From Bacteroidales bacterium (GTDB lineage Bacteria > Bacteroidota > Bacteroidia > Bacteroidales > VadinHA17), in the NCBI GenBank assembly GCA_035299385.1, contig DATGWQ010000076.1:28267-92266 (forward strand): DNA of 64,000 bases, written 5' to 3'. Positions 242 to 61,303 of the stretch are shown here, one piece after another. A program made the position numbers and the translations under genes. Position 1 is the first letter of the stretch; the number at the start of each line of letters is the position of its first letter. Under the pieces are notes generated by a model. The model was not told the DNA's origin. It saw only the letters and a list, made by a program, of their open reading frames with translations, and did no database searches.

Positions 242-309
242 CAAAGGTAAAGTGCCATCATTTACTGCCTGTTACACATTAAAGTCTAAGAGTTACATAA
301 TTTTCTTTA
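242..309 (-). promoter_or_regulatory. three-box promoter element, copy H (box 1 degenerate)
   Basis: Minus strand: ATGTAA (298-293), TGTAAC (276-271), then 21 nt to TACCTTTG (249-242). Sits upstream of the partial gene starting at 207. Confidence 0.45.
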
Positions 310-344
310 ACATTCCGCAGCCTTCCCCGGAAGGGTATTCCATT

Positions 345-569: not shown

Positions 570-639
570 CAAAGATCACGAGCTTTGACTGTTTCATTAT
601 TACAAAACTTTTGAAAAAAGTTATAATATTCCCACACGG
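570..639 (-). promoter_or_regulatory. three-box promoter element, copy I
   Basis: Minus strand: GTGTGG (637-632), TATAAC (625-620), TGTAAT (604-599, 21 bp after box 2), then 21 nt to GATCTTTG (577-570). Confidence 0.55.
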
Positions 640-701
640 CTGATTTTCTGAGTTTTTGTACCGGATTCTGGCATAATCATCTGAATTTTTGTTATATTTA
701 T

Positions 702-1998: not shown

Positions 1999-2066
1999 CA
2001 AAGATGCACACTCGGCGTTGCACAACGATTACATAACTCAGGGAAAAATTTACATAATTCTCACAT
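1999..2066 (-). promoter_or_regulatory. three-box promoter element, copy G
   Basis: Minus strand: ATGTGAGA (2066-2059), TGTAAA (2054-2049), TGTAAT (2033-2028), then 21 nt to CATCTTTG (2006-1999). Confidence 0.55.
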
Positions 2067-2161
2067 CAGACGATATGATGGCGCAAATGTCCACTAAGAG
2101 GGGCGGTACTCACTTAGTTGACGTATCTCATTCGGCTCTATATATTAAGGTAACCTACAAT

Positions 2162-2227
2162 ATGTGTGAATAATATAAATTAAAATGAAAGTTGTGTAAC
2201 TTTTTTTAGGAGCAGGATTTAGATTTT
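2162..2227 (+). promoter_or_regulatory. three-box promoter element, copy A
   Basis: ATGTGTGA (2162-2169), TATAAA (2174-2179), TGTAAC (2195-2200), then 19 nt to TAGATTTT (2220-2227). Upstream of the isochorismatase-family gene. Confidence 0.55.
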
Positions 2228-2244
2228 TACATCAGATATTCCAC

Positions 2245-2284
2245 AACGCTGTTCATGAATTAAAAACGCTGTTCATGAATTAAA
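2245..2284 (+). repeat. perfect 20-bp tandem duplication AACGCTGTTCATGAATTAAA x2, each unit carrying the palindrome TTCATGAA
   Basis: Read directly. It lies between the predicted -7 box (2220-2227) and the ATG at 2331, an operator-like position. Confidence 0.8.
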
Positions 2285-2330
2285 TATGTACAGGTAAAGA
2301 ATCCGGTAACCAAATTAAAAATCAAAAAAG

Positions 2331-2951
2331 ATGATTATCATGGAAAATGCTCAATCGGACTTTATATCGGTAATAAACAGCCTTCTTCTGATTGTTGATT
2401 ATCAGACTGCAATTTTAGGTGAGATTGAATCCGGAGAGCAAAACGAAATAAAAACAGCGGCGCTGGCGACTGCCAAGGCCGCCAGTATACTCAATGTGCC
2501 TGTCGTTATGACTTCACGCAATGAAAGTGAATATGGCAGGATACTGAGCGAGATTACAGACTTTTTTCCGGGAAGGGAGGTGATCAGCAGGAAAGACAGT
2601 GCTGTCAATGCTTTCGATGATGAGAAGGTTTTGCAGCAGGTGAGGAAACATAACCGTGATAAGCTTATAATAACCGGAATCCCGACAAGTGAAGGGCTTA
2701 CGGAGACCGCATCAATGGCTGTCCGGGAAGGTTATGATGTATATGTTCTTATTGATGCGTGCGGTGACAAGTCAGGTGAACGACATAACTACGGAGTCCA
2801 GAGAATGCTCAAAGCCGGGGTAACCCCGATAACATGGATGTCGCTTGCATCGGAATGGATGAACGGATGGGCTGATCCAGTCATCGGCGAGATGAACCAG
2901 GAAGCTTTCGGAAAGTATAATGTGATGCTTTCCTATCTTTCCAGGCATTGA
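2331..2951 (+). CDS. isochorismatase-family cysteine hydrolase
   Basis: LLLIVDYQ..., VPVVMTS..., LIITGIPTSEGLTETA..., VYVLIDACGD (catalytic Cys context) are typical of the isochorismatase/YcaC family. Confidence 0.85.
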   Translation: MIIMENAQSDFISVINSLLLIVDYQTAILGEIESGEQNEIKTAALATAKAASILNVPVVMTSRNESEYGRILSEITDFFPGREVISRKDSAVNAFDDEKVLQQVRKHNRDKLIITGIPTSEGLTETASMAVREGYDVYVLIDACGDKSGERHNYGVQRMLKAGVTPITWMSLASEWMNGWADPVIGEMNQEAFGKYNVMLSYLSRH

Positions 2952-2974
2952 TGTTGAACGAATATTCTACAAAA

Positions 2975-3042
2975 ATGTGTGAAAAATGTAATCTTTACTG
3001 GAAATTATATAAACGCCGGATAAAAACGCGGGAATAAATTTG
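2975..3042 (+). promoter_or_regulatory. three-box promoter element, copy B
   Basis: ATGTGTGA (2975-2982), TGTAAT (2987-2992), TATAAA (3008-3013), then 21 nt to TAAATTTG (3035-3042). Upstream of AraC paralog 1. Confidence 0.55.
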
Positions 3043-3112
3043 ACTAACATAATCAATTGAGATCTGAAGAACGAAATATAAATGACGAATATAACCCTGA
3101 AAACACAAATCA

Positions 3113-3700
3113 ATGTCTGACATAAAAACTCGAAAAGCAATGACTATCTACGTTAAAAATATGGCCTGCCTTCACTGCCAGGAGCTGGTGAAGTCGGAAC
3201 TTGAAAAGCTGGGATTGCACAGACCTGTCATATCCCATGGCGAAGTTAAAATCTCACAGGAACTTTCGCCGTTTAAAAAAGCTGAACTGGACAGGGCCCT
3301 GAGAAGATCGGGGTTCGAGCTCATGGATCCGCAAAAAGTAATGCTGGTAAAGAAGATACGGGGTATTGTAGATGAGTTTCTTCACTATTCGGAGGAACAG
3401 CTCAGGCAGGTTCTTCCCGGTTACCTTTCAAGGAAGCTCAAACATGATTACAATTATCTTTCACAGCTCTTTTCGGAAGTGTACAACACAACTATTGAAA
3501 AATATTTTGTTCTTGCAAAAATTGAACGTGTGAAAGAACTGCTTGTTTATTACAGGCTCAATCTTACAGAAATATCCTATCAATTGAACTATAACAGCAT
3601 AGCCCAGCTTGCTAACCAGTTCCGTGAAGTAACCGGAATCTCTCCAAACAACTTCCAGAAAATCAAATACATACGACAGACTGCCCAACAGAATGTGTGA
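3113..3700 (+). CDS. AraC-family transcriptional regulator with HMA-like N-terminal domain (paralog 1, CxxC present)
   Basis: N-terminus IYVKNMACLHCQELVKSELEKLGL (ferredoxin-like, MxCxxC). C-terminal AraC HTH (LTEISYQLNYNSIAQLANQFREVTGISPNNF). Paralogous to 53207, 58597 and 48369. Confidence 0.85.
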   Translation: MSDIKTRKAMTIYVKNMACLHCQELVKSELEKLGLHRPVISHGEVKISQELSPFKKAELDRALRRSGFELMDPQKVMLVKKIRGIVDEFLHYSEEQLRQVLPGYLSRKLKHDYNYLSQLFSEVYNTTIEKYFVLAKIERVKELLVYYRLNLTEISYQLNYNSIAQLANQFREVTGISPNNFQKIKYIRQTAQQNV

Positions 3701-3760
3701 ATGATATAATTTTAATTCAGTAATATGTAACACTTGGGGGGCTAAAGCTCAGCATATTTG
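3693..3760 (+). promoter_or_regulatory. three-box promoter element, copy C (box 1 contains the TGA stop of AraC paralog 1)
   Basis: ATGTGTGA (3693-3700), TATAAT (3705-3710), TGTAAC (3726-3731), then 21 nt to CATATTTG (3753-3760). Confidence 0.55.
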
Positions 3761-3835: not shown

Positions 3836-4432
3836 ATGGAAAAGAATACTTTTATCAGTACAGAGCAACTAATTGTCCAGAACAATAATAACACAGGAGT
3901 AAGTGAAAATCCAATAAGAGAAAAACTTTCTGATGCCAGGTACAGGCTTTATTACGATTACCTGGAATGGCTTGGTTTTTCAGATGATCCGAATGTTATC
4001 GTTCTCGCTCCCAATGAGCATTACTATTATGATGATGAAGATCTCAGGCATGTATCTGCGCTGGTAAATCTCAAACAGCTGAATTACATAAGAGAGTTAA
4101 AGGATTTTCTGACAACCGTATTCCAGATGCTGCCCCACAGGAGTTTTTTTGTAGGAAGCTTCATTGAAAGGAAACATCAGTTCAGCTTTTTTTCCAATCC
4201 GCCGCATGCCACACATATAAACGGCAGCATTGATCCAGTAGAGAACGGCATAGCCTCCAGGATCCCGCTTCTGAATATTATTTACGATTTCATTGATTCC
4301 CGCACAAATAACAGGAACCTAACTAGAAAATCAGTTACAACAATGCTTGAAATTGCCGGATTCAGGCTGCTTGATATGACGGAAATCAATGGGATTACCT
4401 GCTTCTGCGCTCAAAAAAACACTTTATCGTAA
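3836..4432 (+). CDS. hypothetical protein, methyltransferase-fold-like but without a GxGxG SAM loop
   Basis: The ORF opens at 3809 with GTG; the first ATG is 3836 (MEKNTF...). The C-terminal ...MLEIAGFRLLDMTEINGITCFCAQK resembles class I MTase C-termini. No glycine-rich loop seen. Confidence 0.55.
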   Translation: MEKNTFISTEQLIVQNNNNTGVSENPIREKLSDARYRLYYDYLEWLGFSDDPNVIVLAPNEHYYYDDEDLRHVSALVNLKQLNYIRELKDFLTTVFQMLPHRSFFVGSFIERKHQFSFFSNPPHATHINGSIDPVENGIASRIPLLNIIYDFIDSRTNNRNLTRKSVTTMLEIAGFRLLDMTEINGITCFCAQKNTLS

Positions 4433-48259: not shown

Positions 48260-48327
48260 TAAAGATTACACTTATGTAATCGAAGGTTGTTATATATTGG
48301 ATTCAATCTGTTACATAATTCACACAT
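48260..48327 (-). promoter_or_regulatory. three-box promoter element, copy F
   Basis: Minus strand: ATGTGTGA (48327-48320), TGTAAC (48315-48310), TATAAC (48294-48289), then 21 nt to AATCTTTA (48267-48260). Sits between the truncated HMA-like ORF and the adhesin operon. Confidence 0.5.
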
Positions 48328-48368
48328 GCCTGGTTTTCAGGCATCTAGGAATACTTTTGGATTGTTTT

Positions 48369-48686
48369 TCACCCTGCATTCTGGAACTCTGTTTCCTGGA
48401 AAGCTCCTTCTTCAACATCCTCGGTTATTCCTTCGGCTGCCGCCTCAAAATCGGGGTGGTATAATGAATATCTTAATCCGTTTTCAGGTTTGTCAAACAT
48501 CAATTCAAGGCCGTATTTTCTCAGGCTCAATTCCACACTCTTTGCCTCGTTGGTTGAAAGAGTCGTCTGGAAATCAAGCTCACCGGCGATAAAAGAACTG
48601 AGTTTCAATCCAAGCTTCTTTATTTCCATCAGGACGAATTTCCTGGTACCCTGGCAAACCATGTTCTTTATATATATCTTCATCAT
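48369..48686 (-). CDS. stand-alone HMA-like domain protein: truncated paralog (possible remnant) of the HMA-AraC regulators
   Basis: MMKIYIKNMVCQGTRKFVLMEIKKLGL...GLELM aligns with the N-terminal ~66 aa of 53207/3113/58597. It then diverges and ends without an AraC HTH. The CxxC is degraded to CQGT. Confidence 0.5.
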   Translation of the reverse strand: MMKIYIKNMVCQGTRKFVLMEIKKLGLKLSSFIAGELDFQTTLSTNEAKSVELSLRKYGLELMFDKPENGLRYSLYHPDFEAAAEGITEDVEEGAFQETEFQNAG

Positions 48687-50506: not shown

Positions 50507-50968
50507 ATGGGGAATAATGTGCATGATCCTATTGACATCCTGATTGTTGAGGATAATCCCGGAGATGCCAGGCTCATAAGGGAAGTGCTTAACAGCAATA
50601 AGGGATACACATCGCTTCACATCGTGAATGACGGGGTCGAAGCAATGGATTTCCTGAACAATGGAGGAAAATTCGAGAATGCACCGAGGCCTGATCTGAT
50701 AATCATAGACCTGAATCTTCCCAGGAAAGATGGAAGGGAAGTTCTGGCTGAAATCAAGTCTGATCCTGACCTCCAGCACATCCCGGTTGTTGTGATGACA
50801 ATCTCGCAGGCTGAAGAAGATATCCATAATACCTATAAGCTCCATGCGAACTGCTATATTACAAAACCAATAGATCTTAACGAATTCATCAGGGTTATCA
50901 AATCAATTGAAGAATTCTGGTTCTCTGTTGTAAAGCTTCCTCCTAAAAGAGAGCTTAAAAAATGGTGA
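50507..50968 (+). CDS. single-domain response regulator (REC only)
   Basis: ILIVEDNPGDARLI..., PDLIIIDLNLPRKDG..., YITKP. Confidence 0.9.
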   Translation: MGNNVHDPIDILIVEDNPGDARLIREVLNSNKGYTSLHIVNDGVEAMDFLNNGGKFENAPRPDLIIIDLNLPRKDGREVLAEIKSDPDLQHIPVVVMTISQAEEDIHNTYKLHANCYITKPIDLNEFIRVIKSIEEFWFSVVKLPPKRELKKW

Positions 50969-52779
50969 TTAAAGCTGAACAAATGGCGATCACAACTCTG
51001 ACAAAAAACAAGGCAGAAGTTGAACAGGCTATAAGGATCCTCATGATTGAGGACAATCCCGGCGACCTGATTATTGTCCGCGAGCTGCTTAAAAGCTCTA
51101 AGACGGGGTTCTCTCTGTCAAACACCCCCACCCTCAGGGATGCCATTGCCCTGCTGAAAAACAATATATATGATGTAATCCTGCTTGACCTTGGTCTTCC
51201 TGAAAGCTCAGGCATAGAGACGCTAAAGGAATTCCTCAGCATAGAGGTCAGCCCTCCGGTTGTGGTTATGACAGGCCTTGATGACGAGGAAATGGCCATC
51301 GCTGCACTGCGTGAGGGAGCACAGGATTATCTCGTCAAAAACAGGCTTACCCCGGAAAATATCATAAAATCAATCCGGTACAGTATAGAAAGAAAAAAAC
51401 TCGAGAATCTCGAGAAGAAGAACAGCCGGCAGATGGCGATCCTTTCGTCGACTACATCTGCATTGTATGAGGGCGGCGAAATTTCACAGGTGTACACGCT
51501 CCTGTGCAGCAGCATAAGGAAACTTCTCGGAAATGCCTTCATAGCTGCTCTTGAGAAAACAGGCGATGATGCGTACAAGCTTAGCAATACTGAACAATTC
51601 ATCCCACTGGTCGAAAATCTGAAGCAACTGGGCGGAAATTACGAGTTCAGCCCGGATGAAATAAGTGCAACACTGGCCAGGATGCTCGGTGACGGGAAAA
51701 TCCACCATATTCCCGGCGGCGTTCCGGGACTAATGAAACAGGCAGACACTGCAGATTACAGGAAACTTGAATCAGAAGCGGGCATATCTCATGTTTACGC
51801 TATTGGCATCCTCAAGGATACTTTCCACTATGGCGGAATAATTATACTCTCAGGATCAGCACTTGAAGAAGGTGATAAAGGCTTTATCGAAAACATGTGC
51901 AGCCAGGCTTCACTAAGCATATACAGAAGTGTTATCCAGAAAAATCTTATCAGGAGTGAAGCACGATACCAGAGGCTTGCAGGTGAACTGGAGGAAATGG
52001 TAAAAGCGCGTACGGCAGAACTGGAACAAGCCAATATACAGCTCAGGAAAAGTGAAGCACAGCTCATGGAGCTCAATGCTACAAAAGACAAGTTCTTCAA
52101 TATTGTTGCCCATGACCTTAAAAACCCGTTTACAAGCCTTCTCGGCGCCACAGAACTGCTCTTCCACAATATCCAGAATATGGATACAGAGAAGATCAGA
52201 AAACTCGCCCAGATCCTGAATGATTCGGCAAAAAGCGGGTATGCCATTCTGCTCAACCTTCTCGACTGGTCAAGGTCACAAACCGGAACTATCAGGATCA
52301 ACCTCCAGAAGATAAATCTGAAGACCATCGTCGACGACAACATAGCCGATACGGCGCTCAGTTCCCTCGACAAGGATATTCTACTTGAATCGGATCTGAA
52401 AGAAGACATCCTCGTTATTGCCGACAGGAACATGATCAATACGGTCCTCAGGAATCTTCTCAGCAATGCCATCAAATTCACCAACAGGGGAGGCAAAATA
52501 AATGTCTGCTGCATAAAGACGGATTTCGAGGTACAGATTTCAGTAAGGGATAATGGTATCGGAATAGGAAAGGAAAATATAGACAAGCTCTTCAGAATCG
52601 ATTCAAAATACACCCGCCCTGGAACTGAAAAAGAAGGAGGAACCGGGCTCGGCCTGAAGCTCAGCAGGGAATTCGTCGAAAAGCTCGGAGGCAAAATCTG
52701 GGTGATCAGCAATGAAAATGAAGGTTCGGAATTCTTCTTTACTATCCCTTTTATCAGCAGCGAATTATCGTCCATTTGA
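50962..52779 (+). CDS. cytoplasmic hybrid sensor kinase: N-terminal REC, central sensory region, HisKA and HATPase_c
   Basis: ILMIEDNPGD...DVILLDLGLPESSG; H-box FFNIVAHDLKNPFTSL; N/G boxes LRNLLSNAIKFT, DNGIGI, GTGLGL. No TM segments seen. Confidence 0.9.
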   Translation: MVIKAEQMAITTLTKNKAEVEQAIRILMIEDNPGDLIIVRELLKSSKTGFSLSNTPTLRDAIALLKNNIYDVILLDLGLPESSGIETLKEFLSIEVSPPVVVMTGLDDEEMAIAALREGAQDYLVKNRLTPENIIKSIRYSIERKKLENLEKKNSRQMAILSSTTSALYEGGEISQVYTLLCSSIRKLLGNAFIAALEKTGDDAYKLSNTEQFIPLVENLKQLGGNYEFSPDEISATLARMLGDGKIHHIPGGVPGLMKQADTADYRKLESEAGISHVYAIGILKDTFHYGGIIILSGSALEEGDKGFIENMCSQASLSIYRSVIQKNLIRSEARYQRLAGELEEMVKARTAELEQANIQLRKSEAQLMELNATKDKFFNIVAHDLKNPFTSLLGATELLFHNIQNMDTEKIRKLAQILNDSAKSGYAILLNLLDWSRSQTGTIRINLQKINLKTIVDDNIADTALSSLDKDILLESDLKEDILVIADRNMINTVLRNLLSNAIKFTNRGGKINVCCIKTDFEVQISVRDNGIGIGKENIDKLFRIDSKYTRPGTEKEGGTGLGLKLSREFVEKLGGKIWVISNENEGSEFFFTIPFISSELSSI

Positions 52780-53206: not shown

Positions 53207-53773
53207 ATGATGAAGCTGTATATTAAAAATATGGTATGTGACCGTTGTAAACTGACGGTTAAAGCTGAAATTGAAAAACTCGGCCTTCATTATATATATG
53301 TTGACTATGGTGAAGCTGAAATCAGGGAAAGCCTTTCTGATGAAAAAATGGAAATGCTCAATGCCGGGCTGAAAAAATCAGGTCTTGAGCTGATGGACGA
53401 CAAAAAAAGCATGCTCATAGAAAAGATCAAGCTGCTGATAGTCGAGCTTGTGCATTACTCTGATGAACCGCTGAGGAAGAATCTTTCTGATTACCTGAGC
53501 GAAAAGCTGAATTACGATTACACATACCTGGCAAATCTCTTTTCGGAAGTACAGGGAACAACGATAGAGAAGTTCTTTATTATGCATAAGATCGAGAAAG
53601 TGAAAGAGCTTCTGGTTTATGATGAGCTTAACCTCAAGGAGATAGCATTCAAGCTTCATTACAGCAGCGTCGCCCACCTCTCGAGCCAATTCAAGAAACA
53701 AACCGGCTATACGCCTTCTCACTTCAAGCAGCTCAAGCAGAAAAAGCGCGTGCCGCTCGAATTTGTTCAATAA
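53207..53773 (+). CDS. AraC-family transcriptional regulator with HMA-like N-terminal domain (paralog 2, CxxC present)
   Basis: MMKLYIKNMVCDRCKLTVKAEIEKLGL... plus AraC HTH (LKEIAFKLHYSSVAHLSSQFKKQTGYTPSHF). Confidence 0.85.
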   Translation: MMKLYIKNMVCDRCKLTVKAEIEKLGLHYIYVDYGEAEIRESLSDEKMEMLNAGLKKSGLELMDDKKSMLIEKIKLLIVELVHYSDEPLRKNLSDYLSEKLNYDYTYLANLFSEVQGTTIEKFFIMHKIEKVKELLVYDELNLKEIAFKLHYSSVAHLSSQFKKQTGYTPSHFKQLKQKKRVPLEFVQ

Positions 53774-53799: not shown

Positions 53800-53869
53800 A
53801 AGTGTGAGAAAAATGTAATTTTTTATTTTTTTAATGTAACATTAAACACTGCCAGGAATCCAACCTTTG
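53800..53869 (+). promoter_or_regulatory. three-box promoter element, copy D
   Basis: AAGTGTGA (53800-53807), TGTAAT (53814-53819), TGTAAC (53835-53840), then 21 nt to AACCTTTG (53862-53869). About 25 nt after the stop of AraC paralog 2 and upstream of the small membrane protein cluster. Confidence 0.55.
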
Positions 53870-53908: not shown

Positions 53909-54061
53909 ATGGGAAACTTGCTCTATGTAATAGCCGTAATTCTGGTCATAGCATGGCTGATCGGACTGGTTGGATTTCACGCTGGTGGTATTATCCACGT
54001 ACTACTTGTAATTGCAGTTATAGCAATTATTCTAAGACTTATTCAGGGAAGGGGTGTATAA
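53909..54061 (+). CDS. lmo0937-family small membrane protein
   Basis: MGNLLYVIAVILVIAWLIGLVGFHAGGIIHVLLVIAVIAIILRLIQGR. The track start at 53867 is TTG; the first ATG is 53909. Confidence 0.7.
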   Translation: MGNLLYVIAVILVIAWLIGLVGFHAGGIIHVLLVIAVIAIILRLIQGRGV

Positions 54062-54112: not shown

Positions 54113-54364
54113 ATGAGTTCAGGAAAAGTGTTATTGGGTGTGCTGACAGGTCTTGCAGCCGGAGCCATTCTAGGAATTCTGTTTGCTCCCGACAAAGGTT
54201 CGGAGACACGCAGGAAAATAGTTGAAAAAGGTGGCGATTATGCTGACGCAGTAAAGGAAACCTTTAACCAGGTTGTCGACAGCGTCAATGAGAAATTCGA
54301 TAAAGTCAGGGGCGATGTCGAATCAAAGGCCAGAACGGCAAAAAATGAATCGGCAATGATTTAA
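54113..54364 (+). CDS. YtxH-domain protein
   Basis: LLGVLTGLAAGAILGILFAPDKGSETRRKI is the YtxH signature. Confidence 0.8.
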   Translation: MSSGKVLLGVLTGLAAGAILGILFAPDKGSETRRKIVEKGGDYADAVKETFNQVVDSVNEKFDKVRGDVESKARTAKNESAMI

Positions 54365-58596: not shown

Positions 58597-59169
58597 ATGA
58601 AAATATCAGTTAAAAACATGGTTTCCACACGTTGTATTCTGATGGTGAAGGCAGAACTCGAAAGCCTGAAAATTCCGTACGAATCTGTGGAGCTTGGAGA
58701 GATCGAAACCGCTGTTAATGTACCTGAAGACAAGGTCAGGCTACTTGATCAGCGCCTCAGGATGATAGGACTCGAGGTGAGGGAAAATAAAAAATATCAG
58801 ATCGTCGAGAAGATCAAGGAAGCAATTGCCGACCTCGTCCACAACACAGATGAACAGATGAAAGTCACTCTTTCAGATTACCTTAGCAGGCGTCTGAATC
58901 ATAACAGCACATACCTTTCAAACCTGTTTTCCGAAATAACCGGAGTATCAATTGAAAAATACTTTATAACAAGGAAGATTGAACATGTGAAGAGGCTGCT
59001 TGTTAATGAAGGGCTCAACCTTAAGGAGATCTCCTACATCACCAATTACAGCAGTGTTGCGCACCTTTCATACCAGTTCAAGAAAATGACTGGTTTTGCG
59101 CCTTCCGAATTCCGTTCCATGCTGAGCAGGAGTGAAATGAAGCTGCAGGAGGCAGCTTACCAGATATAA
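58597..59169 (+). CDS. AraC-family transcriptional regulator with HMA-like N-terminal domain (paralog 3, SxxC)
   Basis: MKISVKNMVSTRCILMVKAELESLKI... plus AraC HTH (LKEISYITNYSSVAHLSYQFKKMTGFAPSEF). Confidence 0.85.
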   Translation: MKISVKNMVSTRCILMVKAELESLKIPYESVELGEIETAVNVPEDKVRLLDQRLRMIGLEVRENKKYQIVEKIKEAIADLVHNTDEQMKVTLSDYLSRRLNHNSTYLSNLFSEITGVSIEKYFITRKIEHVKRLLVNEGLNLKEISYITNYSSVAHLSYQFKKMTGFAPSEFRSMLSRSEMKLQEAAYQI

Positions 59170-60292: not shown

Positions 60293-60745
60293 ATGAAAAA
60301 AATAGGTATTTCAGCAGATCACGGAGGATACGCAATGAAAGAATTCATTGCCGGAGAGCTGAGGAAGAATGGATACAGTGTCGAGGATTTCGGCAATGAC
60401 CTTTATGATAAAAATGACGATTTTCCTGATTTCGTGGTGCCCATGGCCCGGGCACTTTCAAGAGGTGATCTTTACAGGGGTATCGCCGTCTGCGGAAGTG
60501 GTGTCGGAGCATGTATAGCTACAAACAAGATACCCGGCGTAAGGGCCTGTTTGATATCCGAGCATTTTTCCGCCCACCAGGGCGTCGAGGACGACAATAT
60601 GAACCTGCTTTGCCTTGGCGGTTGGATAACAGGGAATAAGACATCATGGGAAATTGTAACCACCTTTTTAGCGGCAACATATAAGGGTGAAGAGCGGCAC
60701 AGGAGGAGGCTTTTAAAAATAGAGCAGCTCGAAAAAGGCGCCTGA
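60293..60745 (+). CDS. rpiB: RpiB/LacA/LacB-family sugar-phosphate isomerase (ribose-5-phosphate isomerase B)
   Basis: IGISADHGGYAMKE..., GIAVCGSGVGACIATNKIPGVRA..., NMNLLCLGG. Confidence 0.9.
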   Translation: MKKIGISADHGGYAMKEFIAGELRKNGYSVEDFGNDLYDKNDDFPDFVVPMARALSRGDLYRGIAVCGSGVGACIATNKIPGVRACLISEHFSAHQGVEDDNMNLLCLGGWITGNKTSWEIVTTFLAATYKGEERHRRRLLKIEQLEKGA

Positions 60746-60747
60746 AT

Positions 60748-60815
60748 ATGTGTGATAAATATAAATGATTATCGAAATGTTGTAATGAATAGCTCCTCGG
60801 GGGTATATATTTTTG
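60748..60815 (+). promoter_or_regulatory. three-box promoter element, copy E
   Basis: ATGTGTGA (60748-60755), TATAAA (60760-60765), TGTAAT (60781-60786), then 21 nt to TATTTTTG (60808-60815). Upstream of the HEAT-repeat gene. Confidence 0.55.
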
Positions 60816-60874: not shown

Positions 60875-61303
60875 ATGGAACAGGGAAATCGCCTGGAACA
60901 TATCTCAATAATACCCCGCAAAGACAAGCCTTTTTCAGCTTTCAATGAACGTCTGAAGATTGAGTTTGAGAATATCATCTGTGTTGTGGCAGACAAGAGA
61001 GCAGTTCCCTCTCTTATTGAATTACTTGATGATGACGGGCATGAAATAAGATGGATCGCTGCTGAAAGCCTCATCAGGGTTGGGCGGAAGTGCATAATTC
61101 CTATCCTTCAGGAAATAAGGGATGGAAAGCAGTTCCATTACCCCCGGAAGGTGCATTATGTTCTTGAAAGCCTTCTTACCAGGAAGGAAAGAAAGGAACT
61201 CAGCCATCTTCTCGCCAGCCTTGACAGCTATCCTTACATGTCGGAAATAGCGCCGCTCGAAGCCTCTGTGGCTCTCAGGAAAATTTTCGGATCAGGCTTC
61301 TGA
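60875..61303 (+). CDS. HEAT-repeat protein
   Basis: AVPSLIELLDDDGHEIRWIAAESLIRVG is a HEAT/PBS-lyase-like repeat. Confidence 0.6.
   Translation: MEQGNRLEHISIIPRKDKPFSAFNERLKIEFENIICVVADKRAVPSLIELLDDDGHEIRWIAAESLIRVGRKCIIPILQEIRDGKQFHYPRKVHYVLESLLTRKERKELSHLLASLDSYPYMSEIAPLEASVALRKIFGSGF

Follow-up and report, generated by a model that had tools for sequence, protein, structure and literature searches.

The nine short repeats scattered over the window, which is the whole 64-kb stretch of DNA analyzed here, are real copies of a promoter element spread across the phylum Bacteroidota. Their reading as a composite promoter, in which three boxes precede a putative −7 box, is strongly supported: the copies are intergenic, face genes, and keep a fixed register to the −7 box. 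We consider that the element probably corresponds to a set of sigma-A promoters whose activity requires an AraC-type activator of class II and which control a general-stress-like regulon, the candidate binder being a family of proteins in which an HMA-fold domain is joined to an AraC DNA-binding domain (HMA-AraC).

Copies, conservation, and anatomy of the element

The evidence for the nine copies (Table 1) is as follows. (i) The pattern TRTAA-N16-TRTAA was matched nine times in the window, against 0.40 matches expected, and none of the shuffles got to nine. (ii) A 41-nt weight matrix, whose training loci all came from other genomes with the window left out, returned precisely the nine sites that a first-pass annotation of this DNA had proposed. 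Eight of these scored between 25 and 44 bits; the remaining one, at 242-310 on the minus strand, scored 11.5 bits. No other sequence in the window reached at least 8 bits, and Markov shuffles gave 0 matches. (iii) The 21-bp distance between boxes 1 and 2, by which the 181 seed sites of the matrix had been picked and which is thus uniform among them by selection, was exact in 9/9 window sites. (iv) An nAnnTTTn octamer was present in all nine and began 48 nt downstream of the first base of box 1. Some details of the first-pass annotation had to be revised. A spacing of 12 nt had been assigned to two copies (570-638, minus, and 53801-53869, plus), both of which in fact keep the common register, their box 0 being GTGGGAAT and GTGAGAAA, respectively, and not GTGTGAAT. 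At copy 2162, the octamer reported at a 19-nt spacing exists (TAGATTTT, 2220-2227), but a second one (GATTTTTA, 2222-2229) lies in the usual register. The partial version described for the uspA promoter was not supported, as no matrix score of at least 8 bits was obtained at uspA.

Table 1. HMA-AraC genes, putative promoter copies, and predicted target genes in the window
Feature	Position	Strand	Size or matrix score	Characteristics	Predicted target
HMA-AraC regulator, CxxC class	53207..53773	+	188 aa	NMVCDRC; candidate primary binder	
HMA-AraC paralog	3113..3700	+	195 aa	NMACLHC; 49% identity to 53207	
Fourth paralog, full-length, SxxC class	58597..59169	+	190 aa	NMVSTRC	
Truncated paralog	48369..48686	−	105 aa	HMA-like N-domain only (NMVCQGT)	
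Putative promoter, copy 1	2161..2229	+	39.8 bits	Box 0 GTGTGAAT, box 1 ATATAA, box 2 GTGTAAC; −7 box TAGATTTT or GATTTTTA	Isochorismatase-family gene 2331-2951 (Pfam Isochorismatase)
Putative promoter, copy 2	2974..3042	+	30.8 bits	−7 box TAAATTTG at 3035-3042; upstream of HMA-AraC gene 3113-3700	
Putative promoter, copy 3	3692..3760	+	43.8 bits	First 9 nt, AATGTGTGA, are the final two codons and stop of AraC gene 3113-3700	Gene 3836-4432
Putative promoter, copy 4	53801..53869	+	26.2 bits	27 nt past stop of paralog 53207-53773	lmo0937/YtxH/holin-X-like cluster (lmo0937 family, YtxH, and Phage_holin_3_6 matches)
lmo0937-family gene	53909-54061	+		Predicted target of copy 4	
YtxH gene	54113-54364	+		Predicted target of copy 4	
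Putative promoter, copy 5	60747..60815	+	25.2 bits	2 nt past rpiB-like gene 60293-60745 (LacAB_rpiB)	HEAT-like gene 60875-61303 (HEAT_2 match weak)
Putative promoter, copy 6	1999..2067	−	39.8 bits		52-aa basic ORF 1792-1950
Putative promoter, copy 7	570..638	−	34.3 bits		Divergent CsbD-like 63-aa gene 345-536
Putative promoter, copy 8	48260..48328	−	35.7 bits	41 nt past stop of truncated HMA-only ORF	T9SS adhesin operon 45072-48137/PorP-SprF/OmpA-PKD (CHU_C, PorP_SprF, and OmpA matches)
Putative promoter, copy 9	242..310	−	11.5 bits	Box 0 degenerate; −7 box TACCTTTG	Small secreted protein, 1-207, gene continuing beyond window end

Outside the window, the element was found in 79 of 80 loci centered on homologs of the window's AraC genes (236 sites; 0 in shuffles), these loci having been picked via the regulator and used for matrix training, so that the independent sets are the window and the metagenome contigs only. 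The AraC-centered loci with the element belong to Bacteroidales, Chitinophagaceae, Flavobacterium, Prolixibacteraceae, and others. Cultivable carriers include Niastella caeni, Flavihumibacter fluminis, Draconibacterium aestuarii, Carboxylicivirga, and Ancylomarina. The metagenome set comprises 120 contigs that were retrieved by the DNA motif alone. Sites were located outside long ORFs in 440 of 450 cases, though ORFs cover 75% of the bases, and a same-strand ORF started at most 200 nt downstream of 322 of 402 sites, compared with 105 for divergent ORFs. The element keeps its position and gene orientation at orthologous positions across orders. The intergenic placement and the orientation toward genes that the annotation had described are borne out.

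The consensus element spans about 70 bp and reads AATGTGTGAAT-n-ATGTAAC-N15-TGTAAC-N21-nAcCTTTG. The −7 box occurs at offset 47 or 48 in 211/242 and 174/203 sites (86 to 87%) and is almost absent at other offsets; its form is nAnnTTT[G/A], compared with TAnnTTTG for Bacteroidota sigma-A, and the first T is weakly conserved (0.36). The −7 box and the ATG are a median of 42 nt apart. Bacteroidota sigma-A promoters also contain a −33 TTTG element some 19 to 21 nt upstream of the −7 box. This element is not present here, and its expected place holds the invariant TAA of box 2 (matrix positions 24-25 are AA); RNA polymerase should therefore need help at these promoters, which points to activator dependence. 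In flavobacteria, the −7 octamer occupies −12 to −5 (PMC9723704). With the octamer placed accordingly, box 2 (AAT-n-r-TGTAAC) would span roughly −44 to −34, counted from the inferred start, box 1 (AAT-n-A-TGTAAC), precisely 21 bp further upstream, would span −65 to −55, and box 0 (ATGTGTG) would carry the distal site out to about −71. The element sits upstream of the inferred transcription start, and neither an Rfam match at gathering thresholds nor a tRNA was found in the window.

The HMA-AraC proteins and their linkage to the element

The three full-length paralogs in Table 1 match HTH_18 and HTH_AraC above the Pfam cut-offs; the one at 58597-59169 was not in the list of the first-pass annotation. 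The C-terminal domain of the 53207 protein is MarA-like with two helix-turn-helix motifs, and its fold matches MarA, SoxS, Rob, AdpA, AraC, and ToxT. In the AlphaFold2 (AF2) model of this protein (pLDDT 89), residues 2-62 form an N-domain of beta-alpha-beta-beta-alpha-beta topology (pLDDT about 90), for which Foldseek returned TTHA1718, Atox1, Atx1, and GolB with probabilities of 0.97 to 1.0. The label HMA is consequently upheld by the fold but not by the Pfam threshold, since scores of 16.9 and 18.1 bits stay below the PF00403 cut-off of 24.8; profile matches to HMA entries of the PDB were weak (2kyz, E = 0.0019; ZntA, 0.024; CopZ, 0.08). A CxxC motif preceding helix 1 is present in 65 of 106 homologs and SxxC in 40. 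Given that these 40 lack the first cysteine, CxxC chemistry cannot be a general requirement for DNA binding. Among homologs, hardly any variation is seen in the two predicted recognition helices, and the DNA motif is similarly constant. In NCBIfam, matches were limited to generic AraC models below cut-off, with no curated family name, and a search for a solved structure of a family member in the PDB yielded other AraC DNA-binding domains and the weak HMA matches. The truncated paralog at 48369 is the sole N-domain match without a DNA-binding domain among 114, and the idea that it represents a conserved class of anti-activators was dropped on the basis of this single case.

The genes of this family are physically linked to the element. 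In the window, the copies at 3692, 53801, and 48328 lie beside paralog 3′ ends and that at 2974 precedes gene 3113, as had been described, so that the paralog 3113..3700 is flanked by the element before and after. Among CxxC-class genes, 49 of 65 carry the element at or just past the stop codon, and in 38 of the 65 the TGA of GTGTGA doubles as the stop codon of the regulator gene, whereas the element is upstream of 15 of 40 SxxC-class genes; this difference in wiring is significant (Fisher p = 6e-7 and 5e-6). Over all homologs, the stop codon is common to gene and element in 43 of 99. The matrix scan of the window detected no element adjoining the paralog 58597..59169. Box 0 has the sequence GTGTG in 72% of sites at CxxC loci, compared with 45% at SxxC-only loci, but both phylogeny and the fused sites confound this comparison. 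The only conserved neighbors of the regulator are on the same strand and downstream, and no conserved partner gene was found upstream of it. In the contigs selected by motif alone, no other protein family of at least 100 aa is as widespread as the regulator; it was seen in 17 of 120, with nine sites fused to its stop codon. The other 103 show no regulator gene, as would be anticipated if a large regulon is sampled through short contigs, although this agreement proves nothing. The genomic context thus agrees with the proposal of the first-pass annotation and supports the HMA-AraC proteins as candidate binders of the boxes.

Proposed mechanism and rival explanations

According to the activator reading, each copy would be a complete Bacteroidota-type sigma-A promoter that needs an activator. 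An HMA-AraC dimer would occupy the two direct repeats, two helical turns apart, with the distal monomer engaging both of its helix-turn-helix motifs, one on GTGTG and the other on TGTAAC, and the proximal monomer placed against sigma region 4. This would be a class-II mode of activation like that at AraC I1-I2, XylS, and RhaS sites. The N-domain of HMA fold, whose loop ahead of helix 1 contains CxxC, may act as a sensing and/or dimerizing module. Because CxxC-class genes have the element on their stop codon without being under it themselves, and SxxC paralogs are frequent targets, the data suggest a two-tier circuit. A more far-reaching version, possible but doubtful in our judgment, would make HMA-AraC a phylum-wide master regulator of general stress. 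In that version, the CxxC HMA domain would be a redox-controlled or metal-bridged dimerization switch that allows monomers to fill the repeats spaced by 21 bp, CxxC-class sensors would turn on SxxC-class amplifier paralogs, and a protein bound over the regulator's stop codon could link the switching-on of the following gene with a roadblock against read-through from the regulator gene. No metal-homeostasis genes were found among the predicted targets.

If the regulator just happened to be the best-conserved member of the regulon, a similar genomic picture would result. In one rival reading, the element would be a real regulated promoter with another binder, such as a response regulator paired with the conserved soluble histidine kinase, and the HMA-AraC genes would be only conserved neighbors and members of the regulon. 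A sensor-less HisKA-HATPase kinase is indeed a frequent predicted target (16 sites), genes for kinases and for a receiver-only protein turn up repeatedly in the motif-selected contigs, a hybrid receiver-kinase gene is directly upstream of paralog 53207, and tandem TGT-containing repeats could fit winged-helix regulators too. We nevertheless regard this as unlikely, since no further DNA-binding family recurs in those contigs, the receiver protein lacks a DNA-binding domain and is present at only 5 loci, compared with 14 to 17 for the AraC family, direct repeats of 21 bp whose proximal site adjoins the −33 region are the AraC/XylS layout, and operators on the regulator's own stop codon would otherwise be hard to explain. 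That HMA-AraC proteins bind the boxes mainly as repressors or dual regulators, masking the −33 region until a signal arrives, would fit the position of box 2 over the expected contact of sigma region 4, and operators overlapping the −35 region are typical of repressors as well. The missing −33 TTTG and the weak first T of the −7 box, however, give these promoters the look of intrinsically weak, activator-dependent ones, and the nearest structural relatives of the DNA-binding domain (MarA, SoxS, Rob, AdpA, and ToxT) are activators, so that we judge mainly repressive binding to be quite unlikely.

The chance that an alternative sigma factor uses the element as its promoter, with TGTAAC as a −35-like and nAcCTTTG as a special −10 element and boxes 1 and 0 as an upstream enhancer, seems very small. 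GTAAC-like −35 elements do occur in ECF promoters, a gene for an ECF sigma factor is motif-driven in a few loci, and the −7 box departs from TAnnTTTG at its first base. ECF promoters, however, have a CGT-type −10 element spaced 15 to 17 nt from the −35 element; here, TGTAAC and the octamer are separated by 22 nt, too long a spacer for such promoters, and the downstream box, which lacks CGT, carries a TTTG core of the sigma-A type in the register expected for sigma-A. In addition, the same 11-mer recurs 21 bp upstream, for which a sigma factor has no need, and few ECF genes lie close to the element (4/120 contigs). Practically no weight remains on the copies being nonregulatory, either as a dispersed repeat of the miniature mobile element type or as a structured RNA. 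Several near-identical short blocks within intergenic DNA might suggest a dispersed repeat, but conservation is limited to the boxes, the spacers vary freely, and orthologous positions with constant gene orientation are kept across orders, which effectively excludes a mobile repeat. A structured RNA is effectively excluded by RNAalifold, which predicted no base pairs across 37 copies, and by the null result in Rfam.

Relation to known systems and predicted targets

In AraC at araBAD (I1-I2), XylS at Pm, RhaS/RhaR, and MelR, a C-terminal domain with two helix-turn-helix motifs is combined with an N-terminal sensor or dimerization domain, as it is here. Their promoters, in the site layout generally known for the family, likewise contain two direct-repeat sites with a 21-bp period, of which the weaker proximal one abuts or overlaps the −35 equivalent, and lack a good upstream hexamer. 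The differences from AraC are that (i) the N-domain has an HMA fold and not a cupin fold, in a protein of only ~188 aa; (ii) the polymerase belongs to the Bacteroidota sigma-A type, whose −7 box is TAnnTTTG; (iii) the predicted regulon is large and stress-like, whereas AraC controls a single catabolic operon; and (iv) the operator commonly overlaps the regulator's stop codon, and there is no evidence of looping. MarA, SoxS, and Rob are the nearest structural matches to the DNA-binding domain (TM-score 0.7 to 0.8, target normalized); they are stress activators whose recognition helices lie ~10 bp apart in successive major grooves, which resembles the spacing of boxes 0 and 1. MarA and SoxS, however, are single-domain monomers controlled by their abundance that bind one 20-bp site, and a monomeric activator of this type was rejected in view of the additional sensor-like N-domain of 65 aa and the second repeat at 21 bp. 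CopZ, Atx1/Atox1, and GolB share with the N-domain the beta-alpha-beta-beta-alpha-beta order and a CxxC at the beta1-alpha1 junction. Unlike these metallochaperones, which have GMxCxxC, the domain has NMVCxRC, is fused to a transcription factor, reads SxxC in a large part of its homologs, and scores below threshold for PF00403.

The families preceded by the motif include cupin (48), CsbD-like (43), lmo0937 (23), and OmpA/Gly-zipper (18) proteins; further such genes encode YtxH, DJ-1/PfpI, YceI, mlaEFD-like, and ice-binding-like proteins and SxxC paralogs of the regulator. The CsbD-like gene 345-536 belongs to a cluster that also contains 42 other small motif-driven genes; of the 24 members tested, 16 match Pfam CsbD. 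This gene content agrees with the stress-type regulon suggested by the first-pass annotation and supports the view that the predicted targets form a general-stress-type regulon. From its target list, the isochorismatase, the 52-aa ORF, the lmo0937/YtxH/holin cluster, and the T9SS operon could be retained, and the HEAT protein is backed by a weak HEAT_2 match. The predicted targets overlap the sigma-B regulons of Bacillus and Listeria and the RpoS regulon of Escherichia coli in CsbD/YjbJ-like, YtxH, lmo0937, glycine-zipper/OmpA lipoprotein, DJ-1/PfpI, and YceI genes, and a Usp gene is adjacent here; the proposed control differs in that an activator would act on the housekeeping sigma factor in place of an alternative one. 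In Listeria, lmo0937 is lowered by a sigma-B inhibitor (PMC3225968).

The element and its regulator family offer a concrete candidate for stress control in Bacteroidota, consisting of one protein family, one 41-bp operator, and a rigid promoter frame. To our knowledge, the phylum has no equivalent of RpoS, sigma-B, or EcfG, and we know of no established mechanism by which it coordinates genes for stationary-phase, osmotic, and desiccation-type stress. A description of the motif or the regulator was not found in the open-access literature, including PMC11109978 and PMC9723704, and may exist elsewhere. The architecture is unusual in both the fusion of the two domains and the operator that overlaps its regulator's stop codon. 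With operator and protein family at hand, the regulon would be predictable by a simple scan in any Bacteroidota genome or metagenome, and the element might serve as a compact inducible promoter tool for Bacteroidota genetics. As a minor observation, the predicted product downstream of copy 9 bears a by-eye likeness to a family that is motif-driven in nine other loci.

An intergenic element in the window and in other genomes

The window has nine matches to TRTAA-N16-TRTAA, where 0.40 would be expected; none of the shuffles reached that number. These matches are the nine copies of a putative promoter element (box 0, box 1, box 2 and a -7 octamer, ~70 bp) reported in the first-pass annotation. 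To avoid circularity, we trained a 41-nt weight matrix, covering box 0 to box 2, on the loci of other genomes only. Eight of the nine sites scored 25 to 44 bits and the ninth, with a degenerate box 0, scored 11.5 bits; the window contained no further matches of at least 8 bits, and Markov shuffles scanned with the 41-nt matrix gave 0 matches. In 9/9 sites, an nAnnTTTn octamer starts 48 nt downstream of the position where box 1 begins. The two copies described as having a 12-nt spacing are in the same register as the others, with GTGGGAAT and GTGAGAAA replacing GTGTGAAT. The copy with a supposed 19-nt spacing has an octamer at the claimed register, but a second octamer is found at the common register too. 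The partial copy proposed for the uspA promoter is not supported by the matrix.

The source is an uncultured member of the Bacteroidales, and among named proteins the nearest matches belong to Bacteroidales metagenome-assembled genomes. Downstream of the window sites are genes for an isochorismatase-family protein, a 52-aa basic ORF, a divergent CsbD-like protein, the regulator paralog 3113, a 198-aa protein with no assigned family, an lmo0937/YtxH/holin-X-like cluster, a HEAT-like protein, a T9SS CHU_C adhesin operon with PorP/SprF, and a small secreted protein. No tRNA or Rfam families were found in the window. Between the -7 box and the start codon of the isochorismatase-family gene, in its inferred 5' leader, a 20-bp unit, AACGCTGTTCATGAATTAAA, is perfectly duplicated in tandem. 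The CsbD-like and uspA promoters are back to back, and box 0 of the former is only ~20 nt from the uspA upstream region; uspA could therefore be influenced by its neighbour's element without having its own copy.

Coordinates of features in the window
Feature	Position	Strand	Remarks
Ninth element site	242-310	-	
CsbD-like and uspA promoters	570-691	- and +	uspA -7 box at 684-691 (+)
Tandem duplication	2245-2284	+	
Regulator paralog, full-length	3113-3700	+	one of three, ~190 aa
Regulator paralog, truncated	48369-48686	-	one copy, N-domain only
Hybrid receiver/HisKA/HATPase gene	50962-52779	+	directly 5' of paralog 53207
Regulator paralog, full-length	53207-53773	+	one of three, ~190 aa
Regulator paralog, full-length, SxxC class (NMVSTRC)	58597-59169	+	absent from the first-pass list; no adjoining element

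A search for regulator relatives in one genome per species yielded 80 loci (63 to 82% identity) from Bacteroidales, Lentimicrobiaceae, Chitinophagaceae (Niastella, Flavihumibacter, Ferruginibacter), Prolixibacteraceae (Draconibacterium, Mariniphaga), Marinilabiliales-type genera, Flavobacterium and Aequorivita. The element is plentiful in these loci: 236 sites of at least 20 bits were detected in 79/80 loci and 0 in shuffled versions, a count that is not independent since the matrix was trained on the same loci. The consensus consists of an upstream part, A-A-T-G-T-G-T-G-A-A-T-n-A-T-G-T-A-A-C followed by an A/T-rich stretch, and a downstream part, A-A-T-T-g-T-G-T-A-A-C, ~21 unconserved bases and n-A-c-C-T-T-T-g. 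The -7 box, which was excluded from the matrix score, is at offset 48 (or 47) in 211/242 sites and almost never at other offsets; the next ATG follows the octamer at a median distance of 42 nt. When metagenome contigs were scanned for the DNA motif by itself, at least 120 were returned; the 120 listed contain 206 matrix sites, with the -7 box in register in 174/203.

Considering both locus sets, with genes called as simple ATG-ORFs, 440/450 sites are outside long ORFs, which cover 75% of the bases, and in 322/402 sites an ORF on the same strand starts no more than 200 nt downstream, compared with 105 for a divergent ORF. In an alignment of 37 copies, the boxes are conserved and the spacers free, and no base pairs are predicted. 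Because it is intergenic, gene oriented and has these properties, the element is a promoter and operator at the DNA level. An RNA element was ruled out by the lack of predicted pairs, and a mobile repeat by the conservation of boxes between free spacers.

The regulator and its link to the element

The AlphaFold2 model of the regulator (mean pLDDT 89) has two domains: a beta-alpha-beta-beta-alpha-beta N-domain (residues 2-62), with CxxC at residues 11-14, where helix 1 begins, and a C-terminal domain of seven helices. Foldseek matched the former to TTHA1718, Atox1, Atx1 and GolB and the latter to the AraC-family DNA-binding domains of MarA, SoxS, Rob, AdpA, GadX and AraC. The earlier label HMA-AraC holds at the level of the predicted fold, but HMA matches by sequence are weak and under Pfam's threshold; we consider it right as a fold description, with metal binding putative. 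No NCBIfam model specific to the family was found. The truncated paralog is the sole N-domain match among 114 in all loci that lacks a downstream DNA-binding domain and thus probably represents gene decay, not a conserved class.

In 43/99 homologous regulator genes, the TGA of GTGTGA is the stop codon, so that the codons of the C terminus ...E-(D/N)-V-stop coincide with box 0; 13 more have an element at most 125 nt downstream and 14 an element upstream. As AATGTGTGA is also present at sites not fused to the regulator stop, the DNA motif constrains the protein tail and not the reverse. Among the motif-selected contigs listed, the regulator is the most widespread protein family of at least 100 aa (17/120 contigs; 9 sites fused to its stop codon). 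Its two predicted recognition helices, DYTYLANLFSEV(K/Q)G and YSSVAHLSxQFKKxTG, show almost no variation in either cysteine-motif class, in parallel with the invariant DNA motif. No conserved gene was found upstream of the regulator in other genomes.

We classed 106 regulator genes (window and loci L001 to L200) by the motif before helix 1. The element is at or after the stop in 49 and upstream in 2 of the 65 CxxC genes, whereas the corresponding numbers for the 40 SxxC genes are 10 and 15 (Fisher p = 6e-7 and 5e-6 for element placement). This wiring, with CxxC genes rarely and SxxC genes often preceded by the element, suggests two tiers, one of sensors and one that is induced. The Flavobacterium loci L051 and L080, which have SxxC-class genes only, keep GAAT and two TRTAAC boxes with a degenerate GTGTG; of all sites in CxxC loci, 72% have GTGTG, as do 45% of those in SxxC-only loci, a comparison confounded by phylogeny.

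Proposed mechanism and alternatives

Promoters of Bacteroides and Flavobacterium are known to have a TTTG spaced at -33, and the invariant TAA of box 2 fills this position. With the -7 box at -12 to -5, as reported for flavobacteria (PMC9723704), box 2 would be at -44 to -34 and box 1 at -65 to -55, and box 0 would extend the distal site to -71. The AAT-n-r-TGTAAC direct repeats, 21 bp apart, with a GTGTG one helical turn upstream as an extension of the distal copy, would fit a dimer of two-helix-turn-helix proteins, of which the promoter-proximal protomer would act as class-II activator. This layout resembles the direct-repeat class-II sites known for AraC I1-I2, XylS, RhaS and MelR, and the mechanism would be one form of the familiar AraC/XylS class-II design. 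Sensing and dimerisation would most obviously fall to the HMA-like domain; that the dimer is redox driven or bridged by a metal is speculation.

Recognition of the element by another transcription factor is unlikely, given that no competing DNA-binding family recurs near it in the contigs listed; apart from the regulator, the regulatory families there are limited to soluble histidine kinases (in 8 loci), receiver-only proteins (5 loci) and ECF sigma factors (4 loci). That the regulator represses rather than activates is also unlikely, as the promoters appear intrinsically weak, and an alternative sigma factor promoter is still less likely in view of the 22-nt spacer, the TTTG core of sigma-A type and the upstream duplication of box 2.

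In the open-access literature searched, we found, provisionally, no description of the motif, of the function of the regulator family or of a general stress regulator in Bacteroidota. What appears new is (i) the sensor-domain fold, (ii) the phylum-wide rigid promoter frame, (iii) the overlap of the operator with the stop codon of the regulator gene, (iv) the two-class wiring, and (v) the stress-type regulon.

Genes downstream of the element

The first ORFs downstream of 409 sites were clustered and representatives annotated; family counts rest on BLAST single-linkage clusters. Most populated were Cupin_2 (116 aa, 48 sites) and CsbD-like proteins (61 aa, 43 sites; Pfam CsbD match in 16/24 tested), followed by lmo0937/DUF5670 (23), an ice-binding-like T9SS protein (19), OmpA with glycine zipper (18), the regulator itself (16), a sensor-less HisKA-HATPase kinase (16), a WXXGXW protein (10), MlaE (10, with mlaF- and mlaD-like genes nearby), B12-radical-SAM with DUF4070 (9) and the Thivi_2564 family (8). 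Smaller groups included YtxH, DJ-1/PfpI, YceI, a KaiC-like ATPase and an ECF sigma factor. This gene content resembles that of the sigma-B and RpoS general stress regulons.

Of the loci holding a CxxC-class gene, 39 have a cupin gene downstream in the same orientation. In the regulator-centred loci, the 116-aa Cupin_2 gene is ~0.1 to 2.5 kb past the CxxC-class regulator and has its own element copy; since in classical AraC the cupin is the built-in sensor domain, a separate cupin partner deserves attention. Motif-driven genes that rank among the most frequent in the metagenome contigs listed include an mlaE/mlaF/mlaD-like operon and the gene for the T9SS-secreted ice-binding-like protein, a hint of roles in the envelope and in cold or desiccation. 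In Listeria, lmo0937 responded to a sigma-B inhibitor (PMC3225968).
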